DNA of 64,000 nucleotides. Origin: Tubulanus polymorphus. Lineage: Eukaryota > Animalia > Nemertea. The notes below the pieces were generated by a model. It worked only from the letters and a program-made list of their open reading frames with translations, was not told where the DNA came from and did not search any database. Both the position numbers and the translations under genes were made by a program. Positions 1,102-57,690 of this stretch are shown in pieces. Positions within the stretch are counted from its first letter, which is position 1, and each line of letters opens with the position of its first letter. The DNA lies in contig NC_134030.1 in assembly GCF_964204645.1 (NCBI RefSeq), positions 14,198,110 to 14,262,109 of the forward strand. The letters are read 5' to 3'.

Positions 1102-1121
1102 TTATTTAACAAAAAAATTAA

Positions 1122-2679: not shown

Positions 2680-2694
2680 TTACATAATAAAAAA

Positions 2695-4005: not shown

Positions 4006-4024
4006 TTATATAATTAAAAAATTA

Positions 4025-4456: not shown

Positions 4457-4492
4457 TTATTTAGAAACAAGAAAATTAATTTTAGAAAATTA

Positions 4493-5648: not shown

Positions 5649-5656
5649 AAAAATTA

Positions 5657-6070
5657 CTAATTAGTAAATTTATATGCTACAAATATAACAGTTCCACCTA
5701 AAATCCATATTATTTCATATATCTGTTGTTTACTTGGGGTATAATAATCTGATATTGTAGGTTTATGTAGATGTAATTTTGCTTTATTTGTTACCGCGTT
5801 ATATAAACTCATTGCATCATCAACTGATTGAAAATCTCTATGTGAAATCTTCTGATCATATAATTCTTTGTTAATATAATCCATATAGTTTTGTCGTTTT
5901 TCTCTATATATTTCAGCTGCTTTATTGTATTTCTCTAATGCTAAGTTATATCTTTTTTGTTCTGTTAATGAACCATTTTTATCAATATGTTTAAATAAAT
6001 ATCCACCACCAGTAAATGCTAAAGCGTTAACAATTGCCGATCCTATAATAGTTATAATTGCAGAAGCCAT
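5657..6070 (-). CDS. Viral membrane protein (N- and C-terminal hydrophobic helices, central coiled coil; 137 aa)
   Basis: Intact ORF MASAIITIIGSAIVNALAFTGGGYLF...EQKRYNLALEKY with TAAATG start; resembles a small protein family of invertebrate Polinton-like elements. Confidence 0.75.
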   Translation of the reverse strand: MASAIITIIGSAIVNALAFTGGGYLFKHIDKNGSLTEQKRYNLALEKYNKAAEIYREKRQNYMDYINKELYDQKISHRDFQSVDDAMSLYNAVTNKAKLHLHKPTISDYYTPSKQQIYEIIWILGGTVIFVAYKFTN

Positions 6071-6094
6071 TTATTTAGTAAAATAATTACGCAT

Positions 6095-6316
6095 TTATAT
6101 GGGAGGAATATATTTTTGTTTTTCCAAATAATCAATAGTTAAATTAGATAAAGTAACTGCTAATGTTAATTTTAAAATATCATTTATATCAAATCTATCA
6201 ACATTAACACTTCCCATTTTAAATACTTTTTTTAATACCATTGAATAACCAACAGTTCCAACTGATAGTAATGCTCCATTATATAATCCAGTTATTATCC
6301 ACTTATTATCACTCAT
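6095..6316 (-). CDS. Small hydrophobic viral protein (73 aa)
   Basis: Intact ORF with TAAATG start, two hydrophobic segments, C-terminal DYLEKQKYIP. Confidence 0.7.
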   Translation of the reverse strand: MSDNKWIITGLYNGALLSVGTVGYSMVLKKVFKMGSVNVDRFDINDILKLTLAVTLSNLTIDYLEKQKYIPPI

Positions 6317-6673
6317 TTATTTATCAAAAAAATTACTATCATCAAAATATTTAGTTATCTTATTTATGATTAATTCAACATTTATTTCATTACTAGTTTC
6401 ATTTGTATATATTTCATTTATTATTTTTTTAATATCATCGATGATAAAATCTTCATCTAATTCATAAAATCTTAAAGATTCTCTAATTAAATTAGTAATC
6501 TTATCTACATTTAAAGTTTCTTTATCTATTGTTGTTTCATACTGAAATGTCGTTTCATTAGAAAATGTAATATTTTTGATATGTGTAATTACATCATTAA
6601 CGTTAAATTTCATTTCTTTCTCATGTTTAAAATCAAACCCAAAACATATACTCGGCCCAACAGTTATATTCAT
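6317..6673 (-). CDS. Viral hypothetical protein (118 aa)
   Basis: Intact ORF with TAAATG start; its stop codon abuts the next gene's ATG (TAA-ATG). Confidence 0.6.
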   Translation of the reverse strand: MNITVGPSICFGFDFKHEKEMKFNVNDVITHIKNITFSNETTFQYETTIDKETLNVDKITNLIRESLRFYELDEDFIIDDIKKIINEIYTNETSNEINVELIINKITKYFDDSNFFDK

Positions 6674-6693
6674 TTATATAGTGAAAAAAATTA
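6671..6693 (-). promoter_or_regulatory. Representative viral late-type promoter TAATTTTTTTCACTATATAAATG; copies upstream of ATGs at 1101, 2679, 4005, 4456, 6070, 6316, 6673 and 31784(+)
   Basis: A TAATT-led T-run lies 18-23 nt before an ATG embedded in TAAATG at each gene; TAAATG alone occurs at 7446. Confidence 0.7.
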
Positions 6694-7446
6694 CTCTTTA
6701 CATCTTATAACTAATTCATATATCACAGGAAAGTTATTCAAATCAATTAAATAACCATTATGATTTCTTATTTCTAATTTAAAATTATTGAAATGTGGAA
6801 TACAAGGTTTGAAATCACATTCAGTTAAATTATAATTTATTTGAGTTCCAAATTGTTAAACATTTTTTAGCGGTAAAATATTTAGTATACTAGAACTACA
6901 AATCGTTTCTTTAGTTGCTTCGAAAGTTTTTGTAGGCTCGATTAAATTGCAATAAATATAAAAGTGTGTAAAAGGTATTATATTTGAGCTGCCTTCTGCG
7001 TTTCCAGTAACTGTAAGCGGTTTAATTCCTAACATTTTAGCCAGTGGTTTGTTTACCATAAATTTATGTTGTTCATTAGATATCTTTATTCTTATTTTAT
7101 TAGTACTATCAATTTTATTAAATTTAATTTCAAATACAGAAGTGCCCCCGATTTTCAACCGAGCTCTTCTATTAATTTCCTGCGCTAATGATTCTAAATT
7201 ATATAATCCTGGTTTTAAAAATATATGAAACCATTTATCTTTATTTCTCATATAAATCATAAACCCTCTATGTTCAAAAGTTTTATCCGATATATTATAA
7301 AAAGAATTACATAAACTTATATTTACTAATTTTAAATCTACACAATTCTTAAATTCTCTATCTAATTGTACTAGTAAATTATGAGATTTATAATTAGTAA
7401 GTTTTCTTGAATCAACAAATATTCTGTATTCTTTTAATTCTACCAT
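6691..7446 (-). pseudogene. Putative minor capsid (penton, single jelly-roll) protein with one premature stop at 6856-6858
   Basis: Penton-like motifs IFVDSR, LVNISLCNSFYNI, LKPGLYNLESL and FYIYCNLI. In-frame continuation past the stop reads QFGTQINY...FKLEIRNHNGYLIDLNNFPVIYELVIR to the stop at 6691. Confidence 0.7.
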
Positions 7447-7463
7447 TTATTTTACATATTTTC

Positions 7464-7817
7464 TTATTCGAAATCTATTTCATGGTGCCCCTTTTCATTC
7501 TTACCTTTGTATACGAAATAGAAATCTCCAGAACATAATTCTTCTAAGTCTTCACTTGATAATCTATGAAATCTATCCGGTAAATATGTTCTGAATTTAT
7601 ACGTATTTCCTTTTAATCCTTCATATTCTAAGTGTATAACTAATTTATCTCCATAGTTATTAGTAACTGTAACAATATCTGTAATTAGATATTTCTTATG
7701 GATTGTTAATTCTGTTAACTTTTTGAATTTATAATCTACAGATTTTACATTTGTGATATCTTTAATTCTATCTAGAAATAATTTGTTGTTCTCACTGTGC
7801 GCTTGTTTACTCTCCAT
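7464..7817 (-). CDS. Small Polinton-associated protein, possibly OB-fold/ssDNA-binding (117 aa)
   Basis: Pattern FKKLTEL...KKYLITDI..VTNNYGDKLVIHLE...YLPDRF...FVYKG; lies immediately downstream of polB. The function is inferred. Confidence 0.6.
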   Translation of the reverse strand: MESKQAHSENNKLFLDRIKDITNVKSVDYKFKKLTELTIHKKYLITDIVTVTNNYGDKLVIHLEYEGLKGNTYKFRTYLPDRFHRLSSEDLEELCSGDFYFVYKGKNEKGHHEIDFE

Positions 7818-7846
7818 TTTAATAACATATTTTTATTAAAATTTGA

Positions 7847-8305
7847 TTAACACGTTAGAATTCTTTTCATTATCTCGTTCTCTTTTGTTTCTTCTCTTTT
7901 AAATTTTAAGTATTCATCTAAATTACAACCATAAGCATCTGTATGAATTCCATCATCTAAAATATATCTTTTATCATCAAATGGGTTTAGACTTATCTTT
8001 TCAATTTCTTCAATAAACATTTCATAATCTTCAGATCTTAAACATCTCATCTTATGTTTTCTAACTTCTTCATTGAATATACAATTGATGTAATCTTTGA
8101 AATGAATATTCTTTTCTACTACACTTTTGGTTATTCCTTTTAACTTTTTAGCTTCATGTTCTTTAGTTTTATATGAATACATTTTAGATCTAATACCAAT
8201 GAATTCAATCATTTCTTCACCACCTAATTCATCTTTGAATTTACCGGGAACTTTTTTATTATCATTGCTAAACAATTCATGATCTTTAGGATAATTACTG
8301 AAATA
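7847..8305 (-). pseudogene. C-terminal fragment of protein-primed family B DNA polymerase (Polinton-type pPolB), 5'-truncated
   Basis: FSNYPKDHELFSNDNKKVPGKFKDE, EFIGIRSKMYSY, KKLKGITK and SLNPFDDKRYI...GIHT.AYG are characteristic of the Maverick/Polinton PolB C-terminus. Similarity ends at ~8305. Confidence 0.92.
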
Positions 8306-9886
8306 AAAAATGATGTTTTAATGTTTTTAAATCATCAGTTATGTTATCAGTTTTTATCTTTAATATGTAACTGTCGGTATCAAAATATAATATTTCTATA
8401 TGTTTTTCTCCAAAAAGTGGTTGTAATACATTATAATAGAATTCATACATTAGTGTATGAATTCTACAGAGTGTATACAGAGTGTGCTATAATAGCCTGT
8501 ACTCTACAATATACGAAAATATCCACACTTATGTTCTATGGAAACTTTAAGTTGTCAAATTCACTAGTTAAAAGCTTCAAACTTCGACAAAATCTCACCA
8601 GAATGCACAGTCCGGATGTTACGGCTCTTCCTTATGCGATTATTCCTAGGAAAACCAAATGTTCTTGTTCCCAAAAAGAAGTTTTTAGCTCCCGTGCCAA
8701 TGACACGACTCTACAGTCCGCCATGTTCAAAAAACATTTCTAAACCTGATGCTATTAAACCAAAAATGAATGTAACGAATACTTTGTAACTGCACTTAAG
8801 TTTTTGAACTTAATTATGCGGGTAAAGCTACAAAAATGACGTAATCGTGTATACAAGTAAGAAAGGTGGTAGCAAAATGGACTCAAACGAGCACGCCACC
8901 CGATGTTCCTCGAAAATCGAGTTAGTTCAAAAAGTTAACGTCATTATGGTAGCGGGTTTAAGGTATGGTCTGAGTATTTTGATCATGTAAATTATGACAG
9001 GCTAGTGCTTTTCACCGAATTAATATGTCAGTCTTGATTATGTTTCAATTTGGACTTATAAAGGGAAACTCAATCGCTCATCACGATTCCTTGAATAAAG
9101 ACAGATTACCTGGTAATATTCCAATTTATACCGACGCCGAGTGGCCAGGCTTGCAACTTAATAGGGGAATTGCAAACCACGCAATACCCCAACAAAAAAA
9201 CAACAAAAGTAAGTTCACGCCATGGATAAGGTGTATATATTTTATGTACAGATAGTTTATTGAGTTACAGAATATGATCATCACTCGATCGATTATTTTT
9301 GAAGTGAGGAAAAAGACGACAGGAACAATCTACAGTTTAAGGGAATTAACTCATATGCCGTCCCGTGCTGCTAACTATTGATAAAACTTGAAAGTAACAT
9401 CTGATTTTTAATTTGAATTGACTGCGTGACTTTTCAAACACGAACAATGAGTTTCCTGGCCATTTCGTGATGTCTTATTACTTCTGGCGAAAATCGAGTA
9501 CTTTCCAGCGATGAATTATGTAAGTCTTGAAATCATAGGTCGAGCCAGTCGATTTACTCTGCCAAAAGCTAACGAATTTGCCTCCATTCACTCGATTATA
9601 GACGTTCTTGTCATTTGATAAGCTGTTTTAAAGGGCTTGATAGAATAAAGTACTATTTTATATATGATTACGGTTTACGTGAACTTGCTTGAAATTTGTT
9701 AACAAAAAGTTTCCTTGTACTTCTCGAAAGTTTGATTACAATTGTTGTTCTTCAGTTGTGTCTGAAACAAAGCATAATCCACCAAACGTTTACGTGAGGC
9801 TGTATGTACATCCTTCCCAAGTGGCGCTGATCTGTATTGTCGGGAATTATTCCTACCATAAGTCGGCGTAGTACTAGTTTCGGGGA

Positions 9887-10331: not shown

Positions 10332-10444
10332 TTACTTGACACACTTATATCTGCCTGTTGTATCGTCCCGGACACATATGCTATCTTTTGTAGCTATTAC
10401 TTGTGCTCTATCGCTAATACTTTTGTCTTTTTCCGTGTCATTAT
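10332..10444 (-). CDS. luqin: Luqin precursor, coding exon 2 (C-terminal two-cysteine domain)
   Basis: Acceptor tcttttcag at 10445. In phase 1 it reads DNDTEKDKSISDRAQVIATKDSICVRDDTTGRYKCVK*, containing the C-x10-C motif of luqin precursors. Confidence 0.85.
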
Positions 10445-12510
10445 CTGAAAAGAATATTCGTTATATTTGAATATAACGTTTGAAAGCTAGGCGTAAAGAG
10501 TAATGCAGAATCTCTTTTCCTGTATAGAAATAACTCCGAGACGAAGGAAAAATCATGAAATAAGAATCACCCCTTTGCGTATAAGTGATCGTCTAGGGAT
10601 AGATTGCGCATCTGCTATTGATTCAAAACAGACTAATTGAATAATTGATAATAACGTGCGATCATTAATTACATCAGAGTACAGATTGTTCAGGAGACGA
10701 GAATCGGTAAGCAGGTGTTTGTCTTACAGATAATTGGCTACAAACTTATGTTTCCCTTCGTTATCTATCGGTAATTAGCACGTTTTCTGTTGTGAGAGTG
10801 GCCGATTAATCCTTGTACACGTTGTTCGCTCGAAATCTACCGACAATTTACGGAATTTGCCTATAAAGGAGCGTTCGCGATAGTCTGCGTGAAGTTTATC
10901 TGCTTTCATTTAATCATCAAAGCAATGGTAAACATGGTCACAGGGTTCTTTAGATTTGCACGGTTCATCACAATTCTGGATTAAAATTGTAATAACGCTT
11001 TCGCCTGAGAAATTTTTTGCCGCGAATGTCCACGATCAAAGATAACTGCCCATTGAGTATACGACGATCACCGGCATTTAACAAACATGCACGAGTCACC
11101 CGATCCTTAAAACCTCGAGCCTTAATTATCTAATAGCAACACGTTTTTAGTGTGGCGAATAGGCTTAGGGATTATCCTCGTTTGATATGGAAAATGTATT
11201 ATCTAAACCGTGGAATACGAGAGTTGTTTTTTAGACAGTCTATCGTATGAAACCGTGTCTTTTGCCCACGAGTAGAAAATGTGTACAAGGTGTGAGATAA
11301 AATGCTTTCGAGCATCAGTAGAGACCTCGCATGAAGTTGGTATGCGGGAGTAGAATAAAACACACGATCTCCGTTATGCGAGTAGAATGCGTGTGGTGTC
11401 TCTTAAACTGGGCGTCTCTGTCAATTTAGGAAGACGATTAGGTCTATTACCTCTATTAAGTGTAAATTTATTAGCGATATTGAAACGATCAGTTTACTTT
11501 CATTCTTCGGTGATCAGTCCGGGACCAATTTACCGCTGGTGTAACCAAGCGTATTATTGCGCACGTTGTTCGTAACCGTGTTTAATAGTGACAGGGGTGC
11601 GGTAAAAGTAAGATGGATCACCAGCTCAATTCACAATATCAGCATAATACAATCTGATCATGTTTTACACTCGTCTAAAAACTTCAGGTAGCTCCATCTT
11701 TTAATATAGTCAAGCCGGATCGCGATGTGCCGAATTTGACGCATGGCGTATCGGTACTGTAGAAAACCGTTAATTCATTCAATAAAGCATAATAGGCTTT
11801 ATCATTACATATTTTTAGTGAAGCGGTTCGAATAATTCTCACTTTCGGGTAGGTTTCCATTCATTTGTTTGAATTAAGTCGTATCAAGATAATCTCAAAG
11901 TCTGATTGATTGATTTTTTGACTGGCATTTGCAGCTTCTGATGGACATCCCTACTGTCATGATTGTATTATTTCAATTTGAAATTCGTGGATTTCTTGGC
12001 ACGGCAAACAGGCACACATATAGAGTTGCGATTTTAATATAGGGTCTAATCGTTTTAAAACCCCACTGATAATGAATATCGTAACAATTGGTCCCATTTA
12101 AGTCGAATTTCACTTATCTAGTACAAAAATCTTTTTCCCACAGTTTTCTGGACATAACGATGGAACATGCACAAACATGACACATTGTTGACGCCGTTAC
12201 ATTGGACATCAAATGGCAATGAACGGTCACTTTTTTCATCAGTGTCCAGCTTACAGTGCCCCTCCAGTTGCACAATATGACACGCGTTTGTGACCTCTTG
12301 GACCTTCCACTTGGGACCAGTTTGAATGGATTCTTAGGATTCACTGTAACCTAAGATTTCTGATGCACACTCAAGGAATCAGTTACAAGTGGTGAAACCG
12401 ATGTCTGACGTATTACAGTCAAACCCCGTCATAACGACAACGGGTAGCGATTTAGAGCAAATCCCAAGCGGCTCCATCTGTCAAACGACGACTCGTGTCA
12501 ATTAACTCAC

Positions 12511-17197: not shown

Positions 17198-17405
17198 TAA
17201 CGAATAAAACCCACAGTTACTTCTGTAAAAACAGTTTATTGCCTTACAGTTTCGAGGTTCAAACTAAACCTCATCATCAGAGTAACAAAACTATAATGAA
17301 TTTATTGTATTTTTTGTTCCTCTGATGATGAGGCTTAGTTTGAACCTCGAAACTGCGAGGCAATAAACTGTTTTTTTCAGAAGTAACCGTGGGTTTTATT
17401 CGTTA
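17198..17405. repeat. Inverted repeat (~90-bp arms) of Penelope-like terminal repeat, each arm with a minimal hammerhead core
   Basis: 17198-17290 is the near-perfect reverse complement of 17312-17405; each arm has CTGATGA-T-GAGG..CCTC-GAAAC followed by AATAAA. Confidence 0.8.
17242..17283 (-). ncRNA. Minimal type I hammerhead ribozyme
   Basis: Minus strand reads act CTGATGA T GAGGTT tagtttg AACCTC GAAA CT GTA agg: catalytic core, 6-bp stem II, GUA triplet. Confidence 0.6.
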
Positions 17406-22260: not shown

Positions 22261-24060
22261 ATGAAGTTGATTCAAATATTGTTCCCATTCGTGGCATTAT
22301 TTTCAGTGAATAGTGAGTACCAAAACTGTCCGCCGGAATGTGATTGCTATGACAAAACATTTGACTGTGTGGCACCGGAAAGTGATATTGTAAGCTCTGC
22401 TGACATTTTGGATCAGTGCCCTCAGGATGTAATAGGGATTTCCCTTTACAGTTTTAAATTCAACTTTAGCGAAAGTCTAGTTTTTTCGCGATTTCACCAG
22501 CTGGAATATTTGTACCTGGAAAACTGCAATTTGAATCGGTCTGAGGCTTTGCTTACATCAAAAAGCTTCGTCAACTTCGGTTACGTCTGTGACAGCTCGG
22601 AACAAATTTGCCAAACCGAAGAACAAGTAAAGACAATAATAAATCAGCTACCTCCACAGATAAGTTCATTACGGATCAGTAGCTGGAGGGTAAAATCGAT
22701 AAATGATTTAAACCTTTCTAGGTTTACTCAACTTATCGTATTGGATTTGAGCAAAAATTCCTTATCCACAATCGGTGCTACAAATGTATTTTTCGGCATG
22801 GGAAAACTCAGAGCTTTGCAGCTCAGTTTTAACAAACTGACATCGCTAATGCCGGGTGTGTTCAATGGACTGAGGGCATTAGGATCTCTGGATCTATCCC
22901 ACAACGAGATATACTCGTTGGAAGATGGCGTATTCGCACATTTGAACCAATTAACCGAACTTCGGCTAAAAGGAAATAACCTGACGAATGTATCGTCGAC
23001 CAATCTCACAGGATTGTCACCTTTGAGTTTGGTAACGATTGACTTTTCAGATAATAACCATTTCATGCCGAACTGGGATATGTTCAAAAATCTTCAACGG
23101 CTATCAATAATTTCATTATCTAATTGTTTCACGGATGTTAACCCCTTGCCCACAAACCTTTTTACCGGTTTACATAACATTGCCGCTCTGCACCTTGCCG
23201 GAAATAGACTTACGGCCATTCCGGCCAGTGTTCAGCTGATGGGGTCGCAGTTTCGCACGCTAGATATATCTCATAATTTACTTACTGCAATCAACATCAA
23301 GCTCAACACTCAAATTCCGTCGACCAAAAGCGTCACTTTAGATTTTAGTGATAACCGTATATCCAGAGTAGATAGCGACTCGTTCATAGGCAGTTTTCAC
23401 AAGATCAGTGCAGACGTGGATTTGAGACGAAATCTTCTCCAAGAAATCGATATGAGCGCCATAAAAAAATTAGGTAGAAACGTGCAATTAGATGCGCGTG
23501 ACAACCCGATCATATGTGGAGCCAATTTGTGCGCGTTAAAATGGTGGTCTAGTCAGAAAATGGGTGGCCCCATACTGGTTGACTGTATAAAACAACAGAA
23601 ACGTCGAAAAAGAGTTGACATGTCCGACCTGACCGACTCACAACTTGGATGTTTATACCCGACATTCGTAAAGTGCATCAACGATAAAGTGCGATTACAT
23701 GAAAAAGGCCGGCTTCATTTTACTGCAAAATCTTCCCCGGCGTTTATCGAATTCACCGACGTTCTGATAATTCGAGGAAATAAAACCGAAATGGTCGTAG
23801 AAAGATTAGAAAAATCCAGAATAAGAATTTCGATGTATTTCGACATCGTTTGGGGTGATTTTATCAGTTCGCTAGGTGAAGTCACTGTTGCCACTGCGAA
23901 AGTAACGGCATCTACTGAAATCGAAAATATCACATACAGTGCCACATGTACAAAATCGCTGTTATTTTCGTCCGTTGCAGCTAAGATGACTTGGGATTAT
24001 ACGATGTCGATTTTGATGACCGTTCTGATTATTAACGAAATATCAGAATATGGATCGTAG
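22261..24060 (+). CDS. Secreted/cell-surface leucine-rich-repeat protein (signal peptide, LRRNT, >10 LRRs, LRRCT, hydrophobic C-terminus), single coding exon, 599 aa
   Basis: Signal MKLIQILFPFVALFSVNS; LRRNT CPPECDC; repeats such as LIVLDLSKNSL, LRALQLSFNKL, LGSLDLSHNEI, LTELRLKGNNL; LRRCT-like DNPIICGANLCALKWW..C; C-terminal MSILMTVLII. Confidence 0.92.
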   Translation: MKLIQILFPFVALFSVNSEYQNCPPECDCYDKTFDCVAPESDIVSSADILDQCPQDVIGISLYSFKFNFSESLVFSRFHQLEYLYLENCNLNRSEALLTSKSFVNFGYVCDSSEQICQTEEQVKTIINQLPPQISSLRISSWRVKSINDLNLSRFTQLIVLDLSKNSLSTIGATNVFFGMGKLRALQLSFNKLTSLMPGVFNGLRALGSLDLSHNEIYSLEDGVFAHLNQLTELRLKGNNLTNVSSTNLTGLSPLSLVTIDFSDNNHFMPNWDMFKNLQRLSIISLSNCFTDVNPLPTNLFTGLHNIAALHLAGNRLTAIPASVQLMGSQFRTLDISHNLLTAINIKLNTQIPSTKSVTLDFSDNRISRVDSDSFIGSFHKISADVDLRRNLLQEIDMSAIKKLGRNVQLDARDNPIICGANLCALKWWSSQKMGGPILVDCIKQQKRRKRVDMSDLTDSQLGCLYPTFVKCINDKVRLHEKGRLHFTAKSSPAFIEFTDVLIIRGNKTEMVVERLEKSRIRISMYFDIVWGDFISSLGEVTVATAKVTASTEIENITYSATCTKSLLFSSVAAKMTWDYTMSILMTVLIINEISEYGS

Positions 24061-25411
24061 GTGGCATGTAGGGTTACCCGCAGACAATTGGAAACGATCT
24101 CTCAAGCTAATTTCTAAATCACATTGGCACACGATCAGAGAAGTTTTCTGCGTTTTTTTTCTAATCATCATATGCCTATTGTAATTATGCGAAAGGTGCG
24201 GGGCCCATTAAAATTTTGCCAATTTCGTGCATTGAGAAAAGACAAATTAATCGTGACGTCACGATTAATTTGTCTCTTTGCACGAAATTGGCAACGCCAC
24301 CTATCCTTTTTCCTTGGATTCCTGTTTAAGACATTCTGTATGTTCATGTTCAAGTGTGTGTGTATTACAGGTAGTGTGTGAGATGACCCAGTATTGTATA
24401 CATTTGCACCCAAATGGCAGCAATTTTTAACGAATATTTAAATTGCAACAATAATTGTTCACGAAATGTCTTCAATCATTCACATGGTTATATCAAAATT
24501 TTAAAAGAATAATTTGTACAATTCATATAAATCCAGAAAAGGAAGAGGTCGACGTGGACGTATATAATGATACAAAACACTGGCAACAATGTACCTATAT
24601 TTCTGAATGCCATTATGATAATTTATCAACTGTGAAAATAGAAATATGTGATACCGATCACGCGTGTTGATTTTTGCTCGAGTTTGAGATCTTATCGTGT
24701 ACTGCACTGTTTGATTTTGAGTAGTCATCGATTTGCACTGGGAAATAGAATGAATCAACTGTTACACAATCATGCTGCGATATTATCTCCCGAACATACC
24801 AAATAGCTAAACAAATAACATTTCAACTCAAATATTTCACTTTCCACCATGTGGGATTAATTCATTCTGAATTGATGGGCAGTTCGATGTTGGAATAACT
24901 GATCAAGTAAAGAGAAAGGCTTTCCCAAACTTTGTGAAATCCACCACAGACTTGAATAATAGAGCAGCACCGACGAGGAAGGATCTTATCATTGCTTCTA
25001 CACTACGTGTTGTGAGATATACGTTGTATATTAGTATGGTGCCGAATCCATAGATCAAGCGTATCATCATTCTTGTTATGATCTTATTCAATAGTTAGCT
25101 TACCCACATACCATTGAAAATTGTTATTTCCGGTAAACACTGAGCTGGGTTTGAAAAATTAATAACATATGCGCGAATTTTCCGAACACTCACTGACTAT
25201 ACTTGCTATTCATGTGACATTGCATCACATGGGCTTTACAATGAATAACACACTATGCACTGTACACACAAAATCAGTGTAAGTTTTTCCTAATCGATGC
25301 CGACTGAATTCATGATTAAGCATTGGAATTATCTCTATTTTCATCATAACTGTAATCATGTAAAAAAAATCAAGATATTACACAATTTTTTACCTAAAAT
25401 CAGTTTTATAG

Positions 25412-28165: not shown

Positions 28166-29374
28166 TGGGCTTTTAGGATTGCTTGACCAAGTCTTTTTAA
28201 GCTTAGAATTACTTATTGCCAGACATGAAGCACCAGCGGAAATAGAGATCGGCAACAGGCATCTCTCTTCAGGTCTACCGTACTCCTGTATACCTATGGT
28301 ATTCCTGAAGGCACTTTTACCCATTAATGTGTCAAAGAGAGCATGCTCCGAGAATATCCAAACCTTCTCTGCACCTGTTCGCTTCAGTAACACAAGGCAT
28401 TTGACGGGATGACTAGCCACCCTATTCATCACCCTAGATCCACCCCTAGGAGGAGAAATTTAACGTATTATATCAGACCGTTCCTGGGATTTGGAGAAGC
28501 AGAGAAAGCCAAAATGGGTAGTAGAGTGGAACGCCGATATAACGATTATTCTTATAGGCTAATCGATTATGTTAGGCTTAAAACAAGATGCATGTTAGTC
28601 CCGAGTAAAGGATTCATTCATTAATTTTCTATAGGCTTTAACATTAATATTTCATTAGTACGTATAGATGTTTCACATTGGTTTTCTTATAACAGTGTAT
28701 GTCTGTATTTTCTTAGAATGTACAGAATTGTGGTGCAATTGCAATACAGAAAGATTATGCAAAAAGGGCATTGTATTCAACCTCTAGAAGGTCGGACCTT
28801 AATCCACATACATACACGTGTATGTTGAGGTCCATGGTCTAGTTTCCTTAATGTCATGTTTCATTAACCATCATAATTTGGTTTATTCAACCTCTCTCAG
28901 TAAAAAATCATACGAAGCAAAGACTGCTGTCTTCATGACATGAAACGTTGCAAGGTTTGTTTCACTTTTCCAAGTAGCCCAATTGTCATTTACATTGCGG
29001 AGTAATCTCTGTTCTGAGTTTTTTTGCGGTTTAAGAAGCTACCTGAATCTATGTTATTCGGATTTCACAAGCAAGCCTTTGATTTTCTCAAAGATAGAAG
29101 TTTCCATTGACAACCTATTTCTATTCGTGAAAGGAGTGAAATTATTTTTGAAATTCGATATTGTTCAGGCAACAGCAGTGTCAAAGAGAACTGTATCTGT
29201 GTCTACAGTTGCTGGTGCCGATGGCCTACCCGAATATGAATGTGTGTGGATGCTGAATTTGATATGCTCCTCGTGCGTCGATCTACACATGCACTTCAAA
29301 TCTCAATTTTAAAATGTCGCCTTCTCATGGATGTTACCGTTGATACACCCATGGCTTACCGTACCATTACTTAC

Positions 29375-29462
29375 AACGTGACGAGTAGTACAATATAGGT
29401 TAACTATTTAATTTGATGCACAAGCTTTCGGTACTTATGTATAGTAACTTTATCAGGTGAAT
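29375..29462 (-). repeat. Penelope-like terminal repeat with degenerate hammerhead (same family as 57490-57690)
   Basis: Minus strand reads cac CTGATAA ... GAAA gc tt gtg followed by catcaaat..atagttaacct...tactactcgtc, matching 57602-57680. Confidence 0.65.
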
Positions 29463-30689
29463 GAGTGACTAAGCCTAAGATTTATAAGTCACTTTAAGAA
29501 ATAATAACAAATATAGCACGAATACGCATAAAATGAATGTTTCGGCAGTTAGTTACATTTTGGATTTAAAAGAATTTTTTGACCATCCAGCAATTGATTG
29601 AAATGTTGAAAAGTAAAATTTGGTGACTACACATAAATAGTATGATTTGGAACTGTTTGTCAAGGTTTGTCAACATAATAGAATCATATAATGTTTGTAA
29701 AGTGTCGTATGATACTTTCATTTTCATGGCCAGCTGGTCATTAAAATCCGTGAATTCCGATGTTGAATTAATTAGCAAATCTGGGTTGGTTCCGCGACAT
29801 TTTCTAGCAATTCTATACGGATAAATGTCCAACCGGGGCATGTACGTTAACTATCAATGTTGCTTTTTCAAATTGGATATTTTTACGTTAGTGCCGTATC
29901 TGATATGCCAAAAAGGGCTGTCCACAAAAGACGTCCACATAGAATTTCGACCCCCTTCCCCATGTCCATCGAACAAAAAGCCTATTAGGGACATCAGACA
30001 TCCAGTCGTGCAAAAGATTTTTTTTTCATTCACTTAATCATTTGTTGTAAACCCGGGACTACATTTGTAATTCTATGAATCATCTTGAAAACATGGAAAT
30101 AGAAAATGTTTACATCTTACATATATTCAATTTTGAATTGGCGAATTCATGTACAAAATCGCTGAGATTGTTAATATTCTTAATTTTTAATATGCTAGGT
30201 CAAGCAAAAATAGGACCAATGTTATAGATAATTGAATTTGCTGGCCAAACGGACAGCATGCATTTTTTAGAATTATTTATGGATGTCGTTTAGTATCAGA
30301 AGTTCTTTTTCAAACAACATTACGGAATTGAAGAAACGGATCTATAAGGATAAATACGATACGTTATGAATAACAAGATAAAGATGTAAAACGCGTACAC
30401 AACGAGACACTTTTTTACATATAGATTTAATTTACCCGTGTCATGACAGTTTTTCGTCAGTAAATAGGTTGTATTTTCGAAGGGTCGAGTGAGTAAAAAA
30501 TAAAAATAAATTCTCGCACGCTCGAATTTATTTTTATTTTTCACTCACGCACCCCTTCAACCTTTGGCCTGAACCAACACTTTCCTATCTACTCTTATAA
30601 TTTCATGTTTTAAACGTGAAAGTAAAAACTGTTAGCATAACAATCTAGAAAAATAAGATCAAATATAGATTTCGAATAATAAAAAATCA

Positions 30690-30945
30690 ATTTTCAATAT
30701 AGAAAGTCTGAGTAAAGTGTGAGTGAAATAATTCATATTTAAAACAGTGAATATTTATATTTATATGTGTTAAATTCTTATTTTCAAACATAAAAAGTGT
30801 GAGTAAAGTGTGAGTGAAATAATTTATATTTAAAACAGTGAATATTTATATTTATATGTGTTAAATTCTTATTTTTAAACATATAAAATGTGAGTAAGGT
30901 GTGAGTGAAATAATTTATATCTAAAACAGTGAATATTTATATTTT
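30690..30945. repeat. 91-bp subterminal tandem repeat (~2.7 copies)
   Basis: GAGTAA(A/G)GTGTGAGTGAAATAATT recurs at 30710, 30801 and 30892. Confidence 0.95.
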
Positions 30946-30946
30946 A

Positions 30947-31612
30947 ATGAGTTTTGATAAAAGTTTTGTTATAAAAATTAAGAAAGAAGAAGAACCTGAA
31001 TTCAAAATCGAAATAAAAGAAACCAATAAATTATTTTCACAGTTTAACATTAAAATTTATATCTCAGCAACAAACTTAGTGTATGAGAGACAATATAAAA
31101 TTGATAATATTACTGGAATTAATCAAATATTATTAAATGTAACATATTTGATTACTGAACTAATTGACACTTTTGATTATGGCGCTAAAAATCCTAAAAT
31201 ATTCAATACAGTTTTAAATTGTAAAGGTAATTTAGATGAAAACATAATAAATATACTTCAAACTCCTTTTAATGAAAGAGATAGTGATTAAATACTTTCT
31301 AAAGGTTGCAATGATTTGATTAACGTAAGAATTGAAAAAAGACAATTATATTATTTCAATTTTGATAATAAACAAATTATCTATAATGAAAATTCATCAA
31401 ATATTGGAATTCAATGTGAATCAGTTAATAATAATTCTTATAAAGATATCGGAATTCAATGTTATTTAGATGATGAATTTAGAAAGTTTAATACTAATGA
31501 GAAAGTGTATTGTGATTGTGGAGGTAAATATTTAAGATCACATAAATCAAAACATTATCAAACAGTTAAACATATCGAATATGAACAGAATAATAAATAT
31601 ATACTGAAATAA
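30947..31612 (+). pseudogene. Element protein with C-terminal C2H2-like zinc finger; one premature stop at 31289-31291
   Basis: ORFs 30929-31291 and 31316-31612 are in the same frame with 8 sense codons between them. The C-terminus EKVYCDCGGKYLRSHKSKHYQTVKH is a Zn-finger type common in Polintons and large DNA viruses. Confidence 0.65.
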
Positions 31613-31783
31613 GATTAAGCTGTATGTTTCAAATAAAAAGTAGTTAAAGCATTGAGAAATTAATTAATGAATAACTGTTAGGTAGTAAGTTTAATTGTTA
31701 TTTGATTTGAAACATATAAAAGTTTAATATTTCTAAAATATTAAATATTTATCAATTTATTAATTTTTTTCTTAAATAAATAA

Positions 31784-32005
31784 ATGTATGATTTCAACAT
31801 TCCAACCGGAAGTAGTGATTTGAAACATTATTTAGTTGCTGGAGGTTTAATATTGGCTGCGCTTTACTTTTACTATGAGAATATTAGTAAAGATCTAATG
31901 GATGAAAATATGAAATTGAGTAAAAAGTTAAAGAAGTTAAATGGAAACAATCACAGAAAAAATAACAATAAAAAAGTTAATGTAGAAAATGATTTAGAGG
32001 ATTAA
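31784..32005 (+). CDS. Small single-TM protein (73 aa)
   Basis: Preceded by TAATTTTTTTCTTAAATAAATAAATG; TM segment YLVAGGLILAALYFYY followed by a basic coiled coil. Confidence 0.65.
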   Translation: MYDFNIPTGSSDLKHYLVAGGLILAALYFYYENISKDLMDENMKLSKKLKKLNGNNHRKNNNKKVNVENDLED

Positions 32006-32046
32006 AACAGCATCTTTAATTTATTTTATATATTTTAACTACAAAA

Positions 32047-32352
32047 ATGAGTGAGAGTAAGGTTTTAGAAATATTACATCTAATATATAAAAATCAACAG
32101 AATATTAAATCAATTATTATGCTTACAGCATTAGTTTCATTTTCATTTTGTAGTATAAAACAGTTGTTAGAATTCTATGATAATTGCAAAATTAGATACG
32201 CTGAATTAAAAGATAATATCAATTATCTATCAGATAGGATTAATAATATTAAGTGTTGTGAAATATGTAATAAAAGATATAAAAATGAGAAATCATTAAA
32301 AACTCAGAGATATATTCATGAGCTTAATAATAAACTGTATAATTCAAATTAA
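32047..32352 (+). CDS. Small protein with hydrophobic segment and degenerate C2H2 zinc finger (101 aa)
   Basis: CEICNKRYKNEKSLKTQRYIH, with the first His replaced by Gln. Confidence 0.55.
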   Translation: MSESKVLEILHLIYKNQQNIKSIIMLTALVSFSFCSIKQLLEFYDNCKIRYAELKDNINYLSDRINNIKCCEICNKRYKNEKSLKTQRYIHELNNKLYNSN

Positions 32353-33741
32353 GTTTGAAAATAAAAAAGAATAATCTTTTTATAGAAATATTGTATAATT
32401 TATAATTGTATGAATGGTACGAGTATACGAATGATACGAATGGTACGAGTCTTCCAATTCGTCCACTCGTCCACTCATACACATTCTAAATTCTATAATA
32501 TTTCAAATAATTATTTTATTATAGAGTAATACAAGAGTGATACTAAGTTATTCAAGGTAAATTCTCGCACGCTCGAATTTATTTGTATTTTTTACTCACT
32601 AACCCCTTCAACCTTTGACCTGAACCAACACTTTCCTATTTACTTTCGTCAATTATAGCACCCATTTATAGTACGGACACGTTCAATATCTTGTTCACCG
32701 ATAAAAATCTTGGTATATCCAACAAAGGTTTTACCAAATATATAAAAGATTTACTTATATTGATTGATTAAGGGCAGAGCTGAGCAACCTTAAGTTCAGT
32801 ATGGACAACTCGAGATTGGGGGCTATGAGGAAAATATATAGGCGTGTGGATGTTTAATCACATCGATAATTTTCTTGACTATTTTCGCAGAAATCCTATG
32901 AATCCCAATACCTCTATGTTTGAAGAGAATTTTTGACTATATCATAAAATTCTTATTTGTTGGAAAAGCGTAGAAGTTCTCATAGTTGTTCGTCCTAAGT
33001 CATTGTTACGGTGGTTTATATAAAAGCTGTGATCAAATTTGCTAAGTGATGTCCAACATCAACAAAAAAGGAATTGAACACATTTGCGATGTTGAAATTA
33101 CCACTAACAGTTGAGTTATTTAACTTAGAACAACTTGGTTATTTTTCTTTAACAAAGAAACTTCCAATAACTGTTTATAGAATGATCCACGAGGCTTTTT
33201 TATTATTCTTGAAACGAAATAACTAAGTATCGTGATAATCTTTGGTATGGTAGTACCGTATAATAGTTTTAAATAGCAGAATAATAACCGCTTGCATTCT
33301 AGATAACGGGTCTTGAAAGCAATTATTGAATTATTCGCCCATTTTGATTATATAAGCGATGTTTACATTCATTAGAGTTTAACAAGGGTTAGCTTATTGG
33401 TTTTTGCATTCGAGCTTTTAATAAAAGGAAAAACATGCTCTAAATGAGTAATTAGAAATAACAATAAAGCATGCGACCTTTGTGGGTCATGATCATTAAA
33501 GCCGACCAATCTCATTCTATTAAGCTTCTATATGCTTCACTTAAAACTTTTTTACTTTTTATCTTATCATGATTATCCTCTATGCAATACAATCAGATAA
33601 AGTAAATGAATTGGCATTATTTTGTCCCTTTCAATTCAGATAAATTGTATCTTTTTTTTAAATCAGGGTATGAATGTTTAGGCCAGCTGTAGGCTGAGCC
33701 AATTACTATACGAATGGAGCAAATTTAAATGACATGGTTTC

Positions 33742-34382
33742 CAGAGCTAAGGCCCTTTGACTGTGCAACTGAGCATATATTCATACAGAACGTTCATTAA
33801 AGCATTATCCATTGTCCAAATCGTAGGGAGCTGAATTTTAAAAAAAATGCCTCGTTAAAATTCATATTAGCTTTTCACGAAAATCTGAGCTCAAAATATC
33901 GGTTTTAAAAGCCAATCAGAAAGCAAAGACTCCTCTATGATAGACGCAATAATCAGCAGGTGTTCACGTGAACCCGCGGTATCGTCTACTGTTTACTTCC
34001 GGGTTTTATTTAAAGATTTGAAATTGTATTTCAAGATCGATTTCTGTGAAATCGTTAGTTGATTTGGTTATTGGGAGGATTTTTTTATTTGCACTACAGA
34101 AAATATCATCGACAATGCAAAGTCCGGGAAAATAGCTTTTTCGGATGGATGACCTTGATATGCTAATTAAATCAAATTTTATCCTGGAAAAAAGATCAAA
34201 TCTAATTCAATTTTACTTTATTGAACAAACAAAACGTCGAGTTCAATTTTGTTTTATTGAGCAAATTTCAGAAATCCAATTCAAACCTATTCCGCTTTCA
34301 AATCAATAAGACCAAGGGAAACGATTGGTCTGAGGTATTTGTTGCTGTCCAGCTCGCTGTCTGTGCTTCTCTGTCTGTGCTA
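33742..34382 (+). repeat. Dispersed ~640-bp repeat, second copy at ~46916-47571
   Basis: Colinear from AGAGCTAAGGC.CTTTGACTGTGCAACTGAGCATAT to GCTGTCTGTGCT. Confidence 0.9.
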
Positions 34383-46248: not shown

Positions 46249-46904
46249 AATAGCCCTGTAAAGCTGCAGCAATAACGGTTTTTCTGACATTTTACATACA
46301 CGTGACCTGAAGGGATTCATTGCTTTGGATTCCATCAGATATTAATTTATAATAACATTGATAATAGTGCTTTATTGGCGATCTACAACTTTACATATGT
46401 ATGTATTCAAATATTTCAATAAAAAGATGTCTTTTATTGAAATAACAGATATATTTTCCTATCTCTGTTGAACGTCAACTCATCAGAATAAGATTGAGTT
46501 CTTGATAGAACAAATCAAGATCTTTAGTGAAGTGATATTATCAAAATGCTTCACGAATGCATGTTGAAATCAATTAGTATTTATTGAGTACAGGTGGTTT
46601 AATTCAGTTTCAAAGCTGTATCATATCAAAAACATGGTATAAGCACATATACACGTAAGTGCCATATGCCAACGGGTATAATTAGTTTATGCAAATCCCA
46701 ACGGAACTATGAAAGCGCCAGTCAATTAAGGAACATCAGTACTTTTTACGTGGTAGCCTTTGTGGATCCAAATATCGCGGATGTGTCGCGCTCCTTCAAA
46801 ATAGTTGCATGTTATACTGATAAGAATCATTTTGGTGAAATCTTTGGTGAATCACATTTAAACCAGCAAGGCAGAAACCCGTTGTCGCTGCTTTGCAGCT
46901 ATAT
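46249..46904. mobile_element. MITE-like dispersed repeat with imperfect TIRs, second copy at ~57991-58612
   Basis: Two colinear ~620-650-bp copies; termini ATAGC...GCAGCAATAAC.GGTTT.CTG and CAGAAACCCGTTGTCGCTGC...GCTAT are inverted. Confidence 0.8.
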
Positions 46905-47926
46905 TCATTATCTTTAGAGCTAAGGCTCTTTGACTGTGCAACTGAGCATATGTTCATGCAAATCATTCATTAGAGCATTATCCATTCTCCAACCCCTAAG
47001 AAGCTGAACTTTGAAAGAGTGCCTCGTTAAAATTCATATGAGCTTTTTCGCAAAAATCTGATCTAAAAAATATCTGTTTTTAAAAGCCAATCAGAAAGCA
47101 AAGACTCCTCTATGATTGGCCTAGCCACAGAGATCAGCAGGTACTCACGTGAACCCGCAGTATTGACGTCTACCGTTTTACTTCCGAGTTATATTTTGAG
47201 ATCTAAAATTATATTGCAATATCGATTTCTGTGAAATCTTTAGTTAAGTTGTTTTTGGGAGGAGTAATTTGTACCACACTAAATATCATTGACATTTGTG
47301 CATAAATAGCTTTTTCTTAAATCGGATGGATGACCTTGATATGCTAATTAGCCATGTGCTCAAACTGCAAATTCAATCAAATTTTATTCTGCAAGAAAAA
47401 TATCAAATCCAATTCAATTTTGCCCTATTGCACAAGGTAAAACAGCAAATCCAATTCAATTGAGCAAATTTCAGAAAATTCTATTCTATTCCGCATTCAA
47501 ATCACTAAGACCAAGGGAAAGGATTTATCTGAGGTGTTTGTCCCTGCCAGCTCCAGTCGCTGTCTGTGCTACTTATGAAAGTACGATTGAATTGTGTAAA
47601 TTATTTGCCTGGGTTTGACTAGTCTATCGAGCTGGGAGTGTATTTGGACAAATTTAACCCACATAATGCATCATTCGCCATCTTATGAAAAGCTGACAGG
47701 CTGGTCATAGCGCCCCTTTTGGTTCTTGTTATTATTACAATTTTTATTTCTTTTCCACTTTCCAGCCAAAAATTTTTCATTAAATCTTACTCCTCTCAGA
47801 TTCGACCACTAACAGCTTAAAACGTAGTTTTTTATTTCTGTCAGATATATTAACCAGCGTCTGACCATTTCGATTCTGCGTATTGTAATTCTCGTGATTA
47901 TTAACAGCTTATCAATGTAATTGTCA

Positions 47927-48756
47927 ATACAGGATATCGACAAATTCAAGTTCTGGAATTACTCGTTTGATGGCGCTTGTCAGAACCGGAAATTGGAACC
48001 TATATCCGCCATGTTCTAGTTCAGTTGCAATAAAAATCTCTCGCTTCAAGTTTTTAGTTAGCAATATTTTATTTACTATGATCGGCACGCGTAATCCTTT
48101 AAGTGTGATATCCTGACAACGTGTTGAATTCGATAAAACCTCACTTCGAACGCTAAATATCACTAAAAATGTCAAAAAATTACCAAGAATCACAAATTTA
48201 GCGAAGACGCTCGAAGCAGCTAACGGAAGTAAAGACTGGCGCCTGATGTCATCACTTTGTTGTTGAGTTCAAGACTCTAAGGTGAATTTATTGTGGGCTA
48301 CACTGATAAATATGAAATAATATTATGAAATAAAATTGATTTTTGAAGGACTACACTCGTAGATTCATAATAAAAATATGAAAAATACCAGGACTCGAAC
48401 CTAAAATCAAAATTGGGCTATCAAGTGCTGCCACCATGTGCTACCTGGCAACCAGTCTTTACATCGTCAGCTGTTGCAAAATGTTTTTTGATAATTTTAG
48501 GACATTTATAGTGATTTCTATTCTAGCCTTTACAGTGAGGTTTTATCATAACCAGCGTAACGGCAGGTTATCATATTTAAAGGATTACGCGTGAAGATAT
48601 ATAGTAAGTAGAATATCGCTGATTGAAAACTTGAAGCGAGAGATTTTCATGGCAAATGAACTAGAGCATGGCGGATTTAGGTTCCAATTTCCGGTTCTGC
48701 CTAGCGCCATCAAACGAGTAATTCAAGAACTTGAATTTGTCGATATCCCGTATTCT
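47927..48756. repeat. Foldback: ~310-bp inverted arms around a spacer containing a SINE-like piece, nested in a repeat also present at ~44755-45160
   Basis: The opposite-strand spurious ORFs 47924-48193 and 48631-48819 translate almost identically (REIF.A.ELEHGG.RFQFPVL). Confidence 0.85.
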
Positions 48757-49834: not shown

Positions 49835-51570
49835 TACTCGCTGGGTCCGTACTGTTGAATTTTTTATTTAAATATTTACTGCGATAATGCGCGCTGGTGA
49901 AGTTGTAAACATTGATATCGTCTTTCCGCCGATAATTCAACTTGAATTATTGCTTTATCTCATTCAAAAGTTCGTTATTCTAACAACCTTTAATCTAAGT
50001 TTTCAGGATATCTAAATATCTTTATAATGTATCTATATAATAATCTATGTTTTTTACCGTTCTCAACGATCTTTATTAGTTTTCAAGTAATAGCGAGCCA
50101 AACTTCAAAAACACATTTTCTTGGGTCTCATGCGTGCATCTTTTGATAAGGAAATTTCAAAATTTTACTGGTCCCTACTTTGTTAGAGAATCCAAACTTT
50201 ATGAAAATAAGGGCACCTATATATCCGAAAAATGGTTAACACAGATATATTTTATCTAAGATTAGTCAAAATAAAAATAAACGAAATAATCCAGGTGTTA
50301 AGCCTAGCGCACATCGACACTGCGATTGGAGACAACTAGTTGCTACCGAACGATTACCCCGCGCACATCGAAATCTAGTTACAACCGGTCAGTTGCAGCA
50401 ACTGCATGGCGCGTGTCGATCGTCGAAATCCAGAGCGCGCACATTGACGGATATGACTGCGATTGAGTACAACCAGTTGCTCAAAAGTAGAACATGGGCA
50501 ACTGGCTGGAACTGGAGATAGATCGACGCTTACCAATCGTAAGCTCGCTCACATCGACACATTCAAGCAACTGATCGTATCCAGCCAGTTCCTCTCATGC
50601 GCCGAAAACTGCCTTGCAACTAGTTGTCTCCAATCGCAGTGTCGATGTGCGCTAGGCTTTACGCTCTAACCAGCTTCGTAGGTTCACTACAACAAAAATT
50701 GTCATTATTTCCTTCGTGCATGTGTCATTCGATTCCAAAACGACACGTAACGCAATATACCGTGAAACTTGATGTATAATATTGGCGGGAGACGAATGAA
50801 ACTTCAATGCCTGACACTAGAAAACCTATTTCTACATTTTTACTATCTTGGGAGAGGGTCCAGAAGGACATTCCGCGGATTAAGCCTACTATTATGGTTA
50901 TCCTCGGTGTCGAAACAAGTACATCCAAAATGATGTAATTTACAAGAGGATGATGGTTAGATTTGCAGGTTTTGACGGTCTTAATGGGAAGGCAGAAGTC
51001 AGGACTACCGACCCCCAACATCTAGATCTGTCCATTTTTTACTAGAACATATATCTTTATTTATCAATGTTCGGACGGATACCTAGGTGCCCTTGTTTCC
51101 ATAGTTACCGGAGATTTTGATTTCAACAAAGTATGGACCGGTAAAATTGTGAAATTTCGTCATGTAAAGATGTACGCATGGGGCCAAAGAAAACGTGTTT
51201 GGGAAGTTTGACTCGCTATTACTTAAAAACTAATGAAGAGAATTGAGAATGGTGAAATAAATTTTCAAAAAACTACATATAGATGTCTATTGTGCCTGAA
51301 AACTTCATGTACATTAAAATTTGTTAAAATTACGACGTTATGAAATTAGTGAACAACAATTCAAGCTGAATTATCAGGAAGACGATATAATTGTTTATCA
51401 GCGCGCATTGTTGCAATAACTTTAAGAATGGGTAATATCATTATTAGCCGAGTTCATCGATATTTTTATTTCGTTTCTATCTTGGTCCAATCCAGAAATG
51501 AACGAAACAAAACAATTAAACAAGGGAAAAAATAGGGACAAAAATTCAACAATTCGGACCCAGCAGGTAT
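49835..51570. mobile_element. Foldback-type element with ~400-500-bp degenerate inverted arms
   Basis: GCTGGGTCCG..TGTTGAATTTT (49840) vs AAAATTCAACA..CGGACCCAGC (51541-51564); further inverted blocks at 50085-50220 vs 51080-51225. Confidence 0.75.
50301..50658. mobile_element. PIF/Harbinger-type MITE with TTA target-site duplication
   Basis: Perfect ~43-bp TIRs AGCCTAGCGCACATCGACACTGCGATTGGAGACAACTAGTTGC; TTA at 50298-50300 and 50659-50661. Confidence 0.92.
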
Positions 51571-52899: not shown

Positions 52900-53240
52900 T
52901 TGCCCCTTGTCTTGATAAATTCAAACCTACTCTTCGCCAATTTGATACCGATTTCATTGTAAAGTAAAAGAATAAGATTTACAATTATTGCTCCCAATCG
53001 TGAACCCTAAGGTTCATTGTGGAGTTTTTAAAATTAATTTTTCTGATTGTGACCTTTTCTATATCGGGGAAACTGGGAGAAATCTCAAGGATCGTATTAA
53101 GGAACATAAACGGGATGTTTTTATTCAGGTTAAACTAGAAAGAGGGGTTGCCCTTCATTCTTTGGAAACCGGACATAATTTTGATTTCCCTAGAGCCAAA
53201 ATAATTTTTCCTTACAGTTATCTCACGAAATGACATTTAC
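52900..53240 (+). mobile_element. Penelope-like retroelement GIY-YIG endonuclease fragment
   Basis: GVFKINFSDCDLFYIGETGRNLKDRIKEHKRD...VALHSLETGHNFDF..AKII. Confidence 0.9.
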
Positions 53241-57491: not shown

Positions 57492-57690
57492 GTAAGTACG
57501 AGACGAGTATAGGTTAACTATTTATTTGACGCTAATGAATAGAATGAATAGAATAGAATCTAATGAATAGAAGCTTCATCAGGTGAATAAGTATAGTCAA
57601 TCACCTGATGAAGCTTCTATTCATTAGAAGCGAAAGCTCGTGCGTCAAATATATAGTTAACCTTTACAGTACTACTCGTCTCGTTACTTA
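57492..57690. repeat. Inverted Penelope-like terminal repeats
   Basis: TAAGTACGAGACGAGTA..AGGTTAACTAT.TATTTGACGC...GAAGCTTCATCAGGTGA is mirrored by TCACCTGATGAAGCTTC...GCGTCAAATATATAGTTAACCT...TACTCGTCTCGTTACTTA. Confidence 0.8.
57602..57642 (+). ncRNA. Minimal type I hammerhead ribozyme, intact core
   Basis: CAC CTGATGA A GCTTCTA ttcat TAGAAGC GAAA GC TC GTG: stem I CAC/GTG, 7-bp stem II, palindromic AGCT stem III, CUC triplet. Confidence 0.8.

Follow-up and report, generated by a model that had tools for sequence, protein, structure and literature searches.

The 64,000-nt stretch of the Tubulanus polymorphus genome analyzed here (hereafter the window; NCBI RefSeq assembly GCF_964204645.1, contig NC_134030.1, positions 14,198,110 to 14,262,109 of the forward strand) contains a 2186-bp element at 30459-32644 that is probably one member of a non-autonomous family with many copies, mobilised in trans by the Maverick-type integrase of a helper. 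The insertion itself is confirmed. The original prediction, made from the letters of the window, had described it as a non-autonomous derivative of the Maverick (Polinton) kind that shares its lineage with a viral gene array at the left of the window. The first part of this proposal holds, in that the family is multi-copy, its ends and target duplication are of Maverick type and a real Maverick is present in the same genome, whereas the common lineage with the array is unsupported.

A short AT-rich insertion without core genes

The element begins with AGTAAATAGG and closes with CCTATTTACT, its termini thus reading 5'-AG...CT-3'. It is flanked by a perfect 6-bp target site duplication (TSD), TTCGTC, its inverted ends (AGT...ACT) are perfect over 10 bp, and its GC content of 0.229 compares with 0.329 and 0.314 in the flanking 1-kb stretches. 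When the window was scanned for AG-starting 10-bp inverted repeats with a 6-bp flanking duplication, the element was the single match, and none appeared in 20 local shuffles. With ends of only 6 bp, the same scan gave 13 matches in the window and 4-14 per shuffle; the signal is therefore carried by the 10-bp length of the ends, since pairs of 6-bp ends are common by chance. Contigs of the public sequencing run X1 bridge both junctions with 0 differences (29000-30506 and 32610-33737), which rules out an assembly error, although X1 may be the window's own source sample and so is not a second individual. In agreement with the original prediction, the TSD, the AG...CT ends, the length of 2186 bp and the AT-richness are thus borne out by the coordinates, the GC content, the end scan against shuffles and the bridging contigs.

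The open reading frame (ORF) list and the protein searches likewise agree with the prediction of three small genes, none of them for replication, integration or capsid formation. No likeness to a polymerase, integrase or capsid protein was found among the three ATG-initiated ORFs (114, 73 and 101 aa), and a tblastx comparison of the element with loci bearing an rve integrase gave no match. The element carries no transposition or replication enzyme of its own, and a packaging ATPase gene is likewise absent. It falls outside the autonomous Mavericks and most likely works as a non-autonomous rider. Its features are collected in Table 1.

Table 1. Features of the element and its flanking duplication (window coordinates)
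Feature	Position	Strand	Description
Left TSD copy	30453..30458		TTCGTC
Left terminal fold-back unit	30459..30593		AGT...ACT; z -7.5 and -7.7, 0/200 shuffles
Three tandem 91-bp units	30680..30952	+	75-83/91 letters identical pairwise
Gene 1	30947..31612	+	221-codon frame, stop at 31289-31291, C-terminal CxCGG..H..H
Upstream motif before gene 2	31756..31786	+	T-run then TAAATG, Maverick-type
Gene 2	31784..32005	+	73 aa, one mildly hydrophobic segment, basic tail
Gene 3	32047..32352	+	101 aa, hydrophobic segment, predicted long helix, C2H2-like C-terminal motif
Second imperfect hairpin	32385..32504		77% over about 120 nt
Right end	32558..32644		87 nt, 93% direct repeat of 30507-30593
Right TSD copy	32645..32650		TTCGTC

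A multi-copy family with a common layout

Evidence for a family comes from contigs of three runs (X1, X2 and X3) aligned on 29000-34000; the runs belong to one study and two samples, X2 and X3 sharing a sample. In X1, summed contig depth ranges from 717 to 34,834 over the 11 bins lying wholly inside the element, compared with 32-37 in the unique flanks, and in the second sample (X2 and X3) the family reaches up to about 950 and 300, compared with 2-6 for exact single pieces, with the reservation that summed contig depth is not a copy number and is inflated by short overlapping contigs. At one position of gene 2, as many as 35 X1 contigs have a letter different from that of the present copy, which we read as dozens to hundreds of copies. 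The copies are also diverged: 1348 of the 2216 X1 contigs are under 95% alike (a count that includes those on host repeats in the stretch). The possibility of solo 135-bp units was weighed as well, as the loop of the left end is deeper than the body, and was set aside: summed depth of short overlapping contigs cannot show them.

The diverged contigs reproduce the order of the parts. Among the joints listed, two connect the left unit with the 91-bp array (30566>30779, 30546>30792), one leads from the array into gene 1 (30760>30957), two run from gene 1 into gene 2 (31574>31798, 31739>31798) and one joins gene 3 and the right end (32280>32522); genes 2 and 3 are linked by a contig that covers 31798-32054 and differs in 28 letters. 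Every adjacency of the element's layout is covered in this way. These joints bear on the possibility, also voiced in the original prediction, that a full-length Maverick from an unseen multi-copy family suffered a one-off internal deletion after integration, leaving as its three genes the accessory genes nearest the ends. Such an event would account for the ends, the TSD, the motif and the high depth without any satellite, and small zinc-finger-like genes do occur in four related Mavericks (L001, L002, L003 and L005, introduced below). In line with a private junction, 32340-32506 falls to a depth of 717 in X1 and to the copy's own exact piece in X2 and X3. However, diverged contigs make the joint between gene 3 and the right end (32280>32522) and all the other joints too, so the short layout is not private to this copy, and the three genes are absent from the eight related Maverick loci and from the array at the left of the window. 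Because diverged contigs make the same part-to-part joints, a private deletion is disfavoured, and we regard it as very unlikely.

The second imperfect hairpin (Table 1), which lies between gene 3 and the right end, is rare among the aligned copies and may be a separate small insertion.

A fold-back left end and a direct-repeat right end

The end structure differs from the one originally predicted: the AG...CT tips and the TSD stand, but the termini form a palindrome on the left and a direct repeat of it on the right rather than a simple inverted repeat. The 135-nt left unit consists of an outer arm (30459-30513), a 10-nt loop (30514-30523) and an inner arm (30524-30593), the outer arm being 15 nt shorter than the inner one; those 15 nt are present in both the inner arm and the right end. 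The right end is made up of a 7-bp stem, a loop and an arm closing with ACT, and lacks the left unit's first 48 nt. At both ends the asymmetric loop is oriented identically. Beyond the 10 perfect bp, the right end matches the left outer arm in inverted orientation at 81% over 52 nt with a 15-nt gap, and the direct repeat matches better. The duplex that the left outer arm can form with the inner arm has an energy of -28 to -31 kcal/mol, about equal to the -31 to -32 kcal/mol of its duplex with the right end. The right end alone folds no better than shuffles (z -0.07 and -0.26), and a candidate decayed outer arm in front of it was rejected, as 2823 of 5000 shuffles score equally.

The hexamer GTGAGT recurs in the terminal arms and in the 91-bp units. 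It occurs eight times in the element, counting both strands and with occurrences that are not independent of one another, and 15 times in the rest of the window. The 91-bp array may be a protein-binding array.

The direct repeats raise the question of whether the element could be unrelated to Mavericks, that is, a non-autonomous long terminal repeat (LTR) retroelement of the TRIM/LARD type, with the 87-nt direct repeats as LTRs, or a composite-like DNA transposon. Its ends match best as a direct repeat (93% over 87 nt) rather than an inverted one (81% over 52 nt), it has no homology to Mavericks, and some LTR elements produce 6-bp duplications. However, TRIM and LARD elements are defined by two complete direct repeats with TG...CA ends, whereas the present termini are AG...CT, the right repeat lacks the left unit's first 48 nt, and no remnant of the missing arm was found. 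Inspection of both strands found neither a primer site (TGG-type) nor a polypurine tract beside the repeats, and Rfam returned five matches at E up to 1, all far under the gathering score. A retroelement or composite origin would also leave the Maverick-type motif, the low third-position GC content (GC3) and the zinc-finger genes described below unexplained. With regard to the composite form, the left unit has inverted tips of its own, as do the long terminal direct repeats (LTDRs) of KolobokP in the available text of PMC9587614, but those repeats are about 450 or 660 bp long and enclose a transposase. Taken together, an origin outside the Mavericks is distinctly unlikely.

The strong terminal hairpin allows a further interpretation, in which the element represents an independent satellite lineage with hairpin ends, replicated by fold-back priming and strand transfer in the parvovirus-like flip/flop manner, for which a Maverick or other large DNA virus serves only as helper. 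Flip/flop resolution of parvovirus-like hairpin ends would give the same orientation of the asymmetric loop at both ends, as is the case here. The absence of Maverick orthologues of the genes, the GIY-YIG-type motif in 14 of the 36 proteins with tails of the gene 1 type and the eight of ten gene 3 Atlas rows that fall in Nucleocytoviricota clusters (leads only, all with scores under 0.9) would fit as well. However, the right end has only a 7-bp stem and folds no better than shuffles, the element has neither a nicking nor a Rep gene, a GIY-YIG nuclease is not detectable in gene 1, and one template switch in the course of copying could have produced the direct repeat. Of the explanations weighed here, this is the one to which we assign the lowest probability.

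Three small genes

Gene 1, the first of the three ORFs with 114 aa, has a frame that runs on past the stop codon to 31612. At the stop codon, all aligned contigs differ from the present copy (10, 5 and 2 contigs in the three runs), and the stop is therefore private to it. Read through with X at this codon, gene 1 has no full-length relative among 211 candidates. HMMER returned 36 matching proteins with E values of 0.001 or less, none of which reaches 1e-10, and these matches centre on the CxCGG..H..H tail, a motif that appears zinc-finger-like; ten of the 36, when looked up, bore no informative name. The N-terminal part has no known relatives. The proposal that gene 1 is a decayed GIY-YIG nuclease, to which the motif in the proteins resembling its tail (14/36) points, was rejected, as 244 of 1000 shuffles score equally, and a host GIY-YIG fragment used as a control scores 24 bits. 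Weak Pfam matches on gene 1 (SL4P, Glyco_hydro_63 and Tox-MPTase4) are all under the cut-off and were taken as chance.

No homologue of gene 2 was found (0/8 stretches; best Atlas score 0.76), and no candidate homologue of gene 3 (0/36 stretches). The C2H2-like motif of gene 3 scores under the Pfam cut-off. Its Atlas neighbours are C2H2 proteins, and eight of ten rows are Nucleocytoviricota clusters; because all scores are under 0.9, these rows are leads only. A single-sequence structural model of gene 3 shows two helices and is uninformative (predicted template modelling score, pTM, 0.32).

A true Maverick in the window and its relation to the element

The array at 1-8790, mostly on the minus strand, is a decayed fragment of a true Maverick with no recognisable terminus. 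Of 1767 candidates, 87 are related at E up to 1e-10 to its ORF at 124-1101 (325 aa, compared with about 415 in relatives), and the structural model of this ORF (predicted local distance difference test, pLDDT, 74) matches chains of vaccinia D13 and the PBCV-1 capsid, with a best E of 4.9e-7 and 81 matches at E up to 0.001; a double-jelly-roll-type capsid fold is thus predicted. Relatives of this ORF are encoded in 8 of 94 metagenome stretches (L001-L008). One of them, L001, is syntenic with the array, with the same gene order and 72-78% identity in five blocks, and carries genes for an rve-chromo integrase and an A32 ATPase. The polymerase-like pieces at 7847-8450, which we take to be PolB from a YxDTDS motif, gave no polymerase match in Pfam, NCBIfam or PDB sequence searches. 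Within the array, a GC-richer, ORF-poor break at 4500-5650, unmatched in L001, is probably a host repeat insertion. The related loci also contain intergenic tandem repeat arrays of 24-nt and 11-nt units (L002:2341-2459, L002:5708-5826 and L005:6074-6260).

A run of T followed by TAAATG precedes most genes in L001-L008 and in the array, a motif that we take to resemble the poxvirus late promoter; no literature on a TAAATG promoter of Polintons was found. In L001, a deoxynucleoside kinase gene (10343-10981; Pfam dNK, 110 bits) is preceded by a motif nearly the same as the one before gene 2. The original prediction that the element shares this motif with the viral array is correct, the motif sitting in front of gene 2. 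A profile was built from the 27 nt preceding 38 ORFs of seven of the eight loci, L003 being left out as a near-duplicate of L002. With this profile, five array genes rank first and gene 2 ranks 6th of 2428 ATGs, scoring 8.9 bits, while the highest value among 2000 host ATGs is 3.8; the gene 2 score is reached in 37 of 2000 shuffled versions of the element. Codon composition runs parallel: GC3 is 0.11-0.27 in the frames of the element and 0.06-0.22 in six array genes, compared with 0.43 in a host leucine-rich-repeat gene.

The element thus looks like part of the Maverick world, while membership in the array's own family is unsupported. So is the claim that both belong to the same viral lineage: apart from short AT-rich stretches, several of them on the upstream motif itself, neither the array nor the eight loci match the element in DNA or protein, tblastx gave nothing at E 0.01, and none of the three genes of the element was found there. 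The claim that the element reveals the terminal structure missing from the array is likewise unsupported, because no autonomous end with the element's termini was seen, and its terminal motifs were not found in the eight related loci. No Maverick with intact ends was found in the viral contigs or prokaryote genomes searched.

Weighing the helper-dependent reading and a possible mechanism

Several observations weigh against a family moved by a Maverick-type integrase. The element shows no DNA or protein homology to the array and the eight loci beyond short AT-rich stretches. Its terminal motifs are absent from all eight loci, in which, as in the array, no terminus is visible, and the terminal and loop patterns had no match in viral contigs, metagenome contigs or prokaryote genomes. 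The end reads AGTAAA and thus differs from the repeated (AGT)2 or (AG)3 of vertebrate Mavericks. A clear upstream motif precedes only one of the three genes (gene 3 ranks 21 and gene 1 ranks 489), and the shuffle test for the gene 2 motif is modest, at about 0.02. With respect to the family, the joints stem from different contigs, among which no single other full-length copy is seen, and neither a second TSD-bounded copy nor an empty site is readable, X2 and X3 having no pieces over the junction flanks. Finally, at 85% likeness 30459-30473 is covered by the present copy's own contig only, and depth over the inner arm's final 15 letters is about 420-480, compared with about 95,000 at the loop; coverage this low does not support the exact terminus as a family-wide feature. 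Either the copies differ in their outermost letters or the 15-nt gap interrupts the alignments. Loose ends before 30494 are seen in twelve contigs (median 255 letters, agreement 0.59), and one 1495-nt contig at single-copy depth has 1340 unlike letters beyond 30479; such running into unlike sequence fits other insertion sites.

Under the favoured reading, movement in trans would proceed as follows. The helper, inferred rather than observed, as no autonomous end, second target duplication or empty site is visible, would supply a retroviral-type integrase that recognises and joins the AGT...ACT outer ends, generating the 6-bp duplication, and a polymerase that copies the excised or single-stranded element from its ends. 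Copying from the ends is suggested because the left outer arm pairs about equally well with the inner arm or with the right end, and the extra inner arm could have arisen by, or could serve, template switching at the end. Via the common upstream motif, expression of gene 2 would start together with that of the structural genes of the helper, and the zinc-finger proteins could bind the GTGAGT-bearing arms and the 91-bp array. Since it inserted, the present copy has undergone decay, seen in the private stop in gene 1 and the shortened outer arm.

A more far-reaching version, unlikely in our estimation, would see in the element a genuine satellite lineage of animal Mavericks that bears genes of its own, as opposed to a product of deletion. 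Such an element, some 2 kb in length, would have fold-back ends copied in flip/flop fashion, its own zinc-finger proteins that bind the ends and the array, and a small membrane protein whose timing follows the promoter motif of the helper; it would be a eukaryotic counterpart of phage satellites living on an endogenous virus. Should the three genes prove conserved, and no helper carry them, the endogenous DNA viruses found in animals would have satellites of their own; if the ends proved identical to those of a resident Maverick and the genes to be leftovers, the element would be an ordinary miniature derivative. A family of 2-kb elements able to spread with no core genes would mark out the minimal ends of a Maverick and provide a small natural substrate for study, and its mixed ends (inverted tips, left fold-back and direct repeat) discriminate between protein-primed copying and hairpin priming.

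Other features of the window

An intronless gene at 22261-24060 encodes a 599-aa leucine-rich-repeat protein with a likely signal peptide and is a host gene; together with the repeat landscape, it points to a eukaryotic and probably animal host. The GIY-YIG fragment at 52976-53230 (Pfam E 5e-4, just below the cut-off) is perhaps, as a guess, the remnant of a Penelope-like element. Palindromes or inverted-repeat pairs of the MITE type (miniature inverted-repeat transposable elements) lie at 17198-17405, 24216-24294, 57559-57628, 47926-48754 and 49876-51419, and none of them passes the scan for AG-starting 10-bp ends with a 6-bp duplication. Host repeats at 29334-29500 and 33676-34370 show high contig depth; the stretch 33743-34370 matches 46916-47573 at 76%, and the repeats at 46266-46905 and 58004-58615 match one another at 83%.

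Comparison with known systems

The element shares with autonomous Mavericks or Polintons its 6-bp TSD and AG...CT-type ends, vertebrate Mavericks being described in the available text of PMC8097293 as having a 6-bp duplication, (AGT)2 and (AG)3 end motifs and sizes near 17 kb. Their copy numbers, according to the same text, are mostly low (median 8, maximum 287; PMC8097293). The element differs from them in its 2.2 kb, compared with about 15-25 kb for Polintons, which encode PolB and integrase in the part of PMC6431247 that was accessible, and in having no polymerase, integrase, ATPase, protease or capsid gene. Further common traits are the AT-rich, intronless small genes and the upstream motif, as in the array of the window and L001-L008. 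Unlike in autonomous Mavericks, the end motif is unrepeated, the perfect inverted repeat measures only 10 bp, and a left fold-back is combined with a right direct repeat.

Non-autonomous Polinton derivatives, reportedly described by Kapitonov and Jurka in 2006 and held in Repbase, are said to be several kb long and alignable to a parent. The element resembles them in the loss of core genes and in its likely dependence on a helper integrase, and differs from them in that no parent was found and that its three genes are without a Maverick orthologue in the tested loci. Tlr1 is "sometimes viewed as non-autonomous polintons", but possesses a gene set of its own and is treated as a polinton-like virus (PLV) in the accessible portion of PMC5499653, and Polinton-N1A_NV has a capsid gene (PMC11296320, available text). 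Insect polintons are mobile and carry cargo, and the available part of the preprint describes no miniature form (bioRxiv 10.1101/2025.02.07.637071). No report of a 2-kb gene-bearing Maverick satellite was found in a literature search that excluded Repbase, supplements and most subscription journals.

Like transpovirons as far as they are portrayed in the available text of PMC5499653, the element is small, linear and capsid-less, has terminal repeats and a zinc-binding gene, and would need a larger DNA virus. However, transpovirons are about 7 kb long, encode an SF1 helicase and are tied to mimiviruses (PMC5499653, same portion), whereas the element has no helicase and resides in a host chromosome within a 6-bp duplication. 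Similar to KolobokP, it has direct terminal repeats with inverted tips of their own, from which solo units or multimers would be possible by recombination, but it is without the 450- or 660-bp LTDRs that surround a transposase and a His-Me nuclease there (PMC9587614, available text). Among all these systems, the element stands out by its small size, its own gene set and its combination of fold-back and direct-repeat ends.

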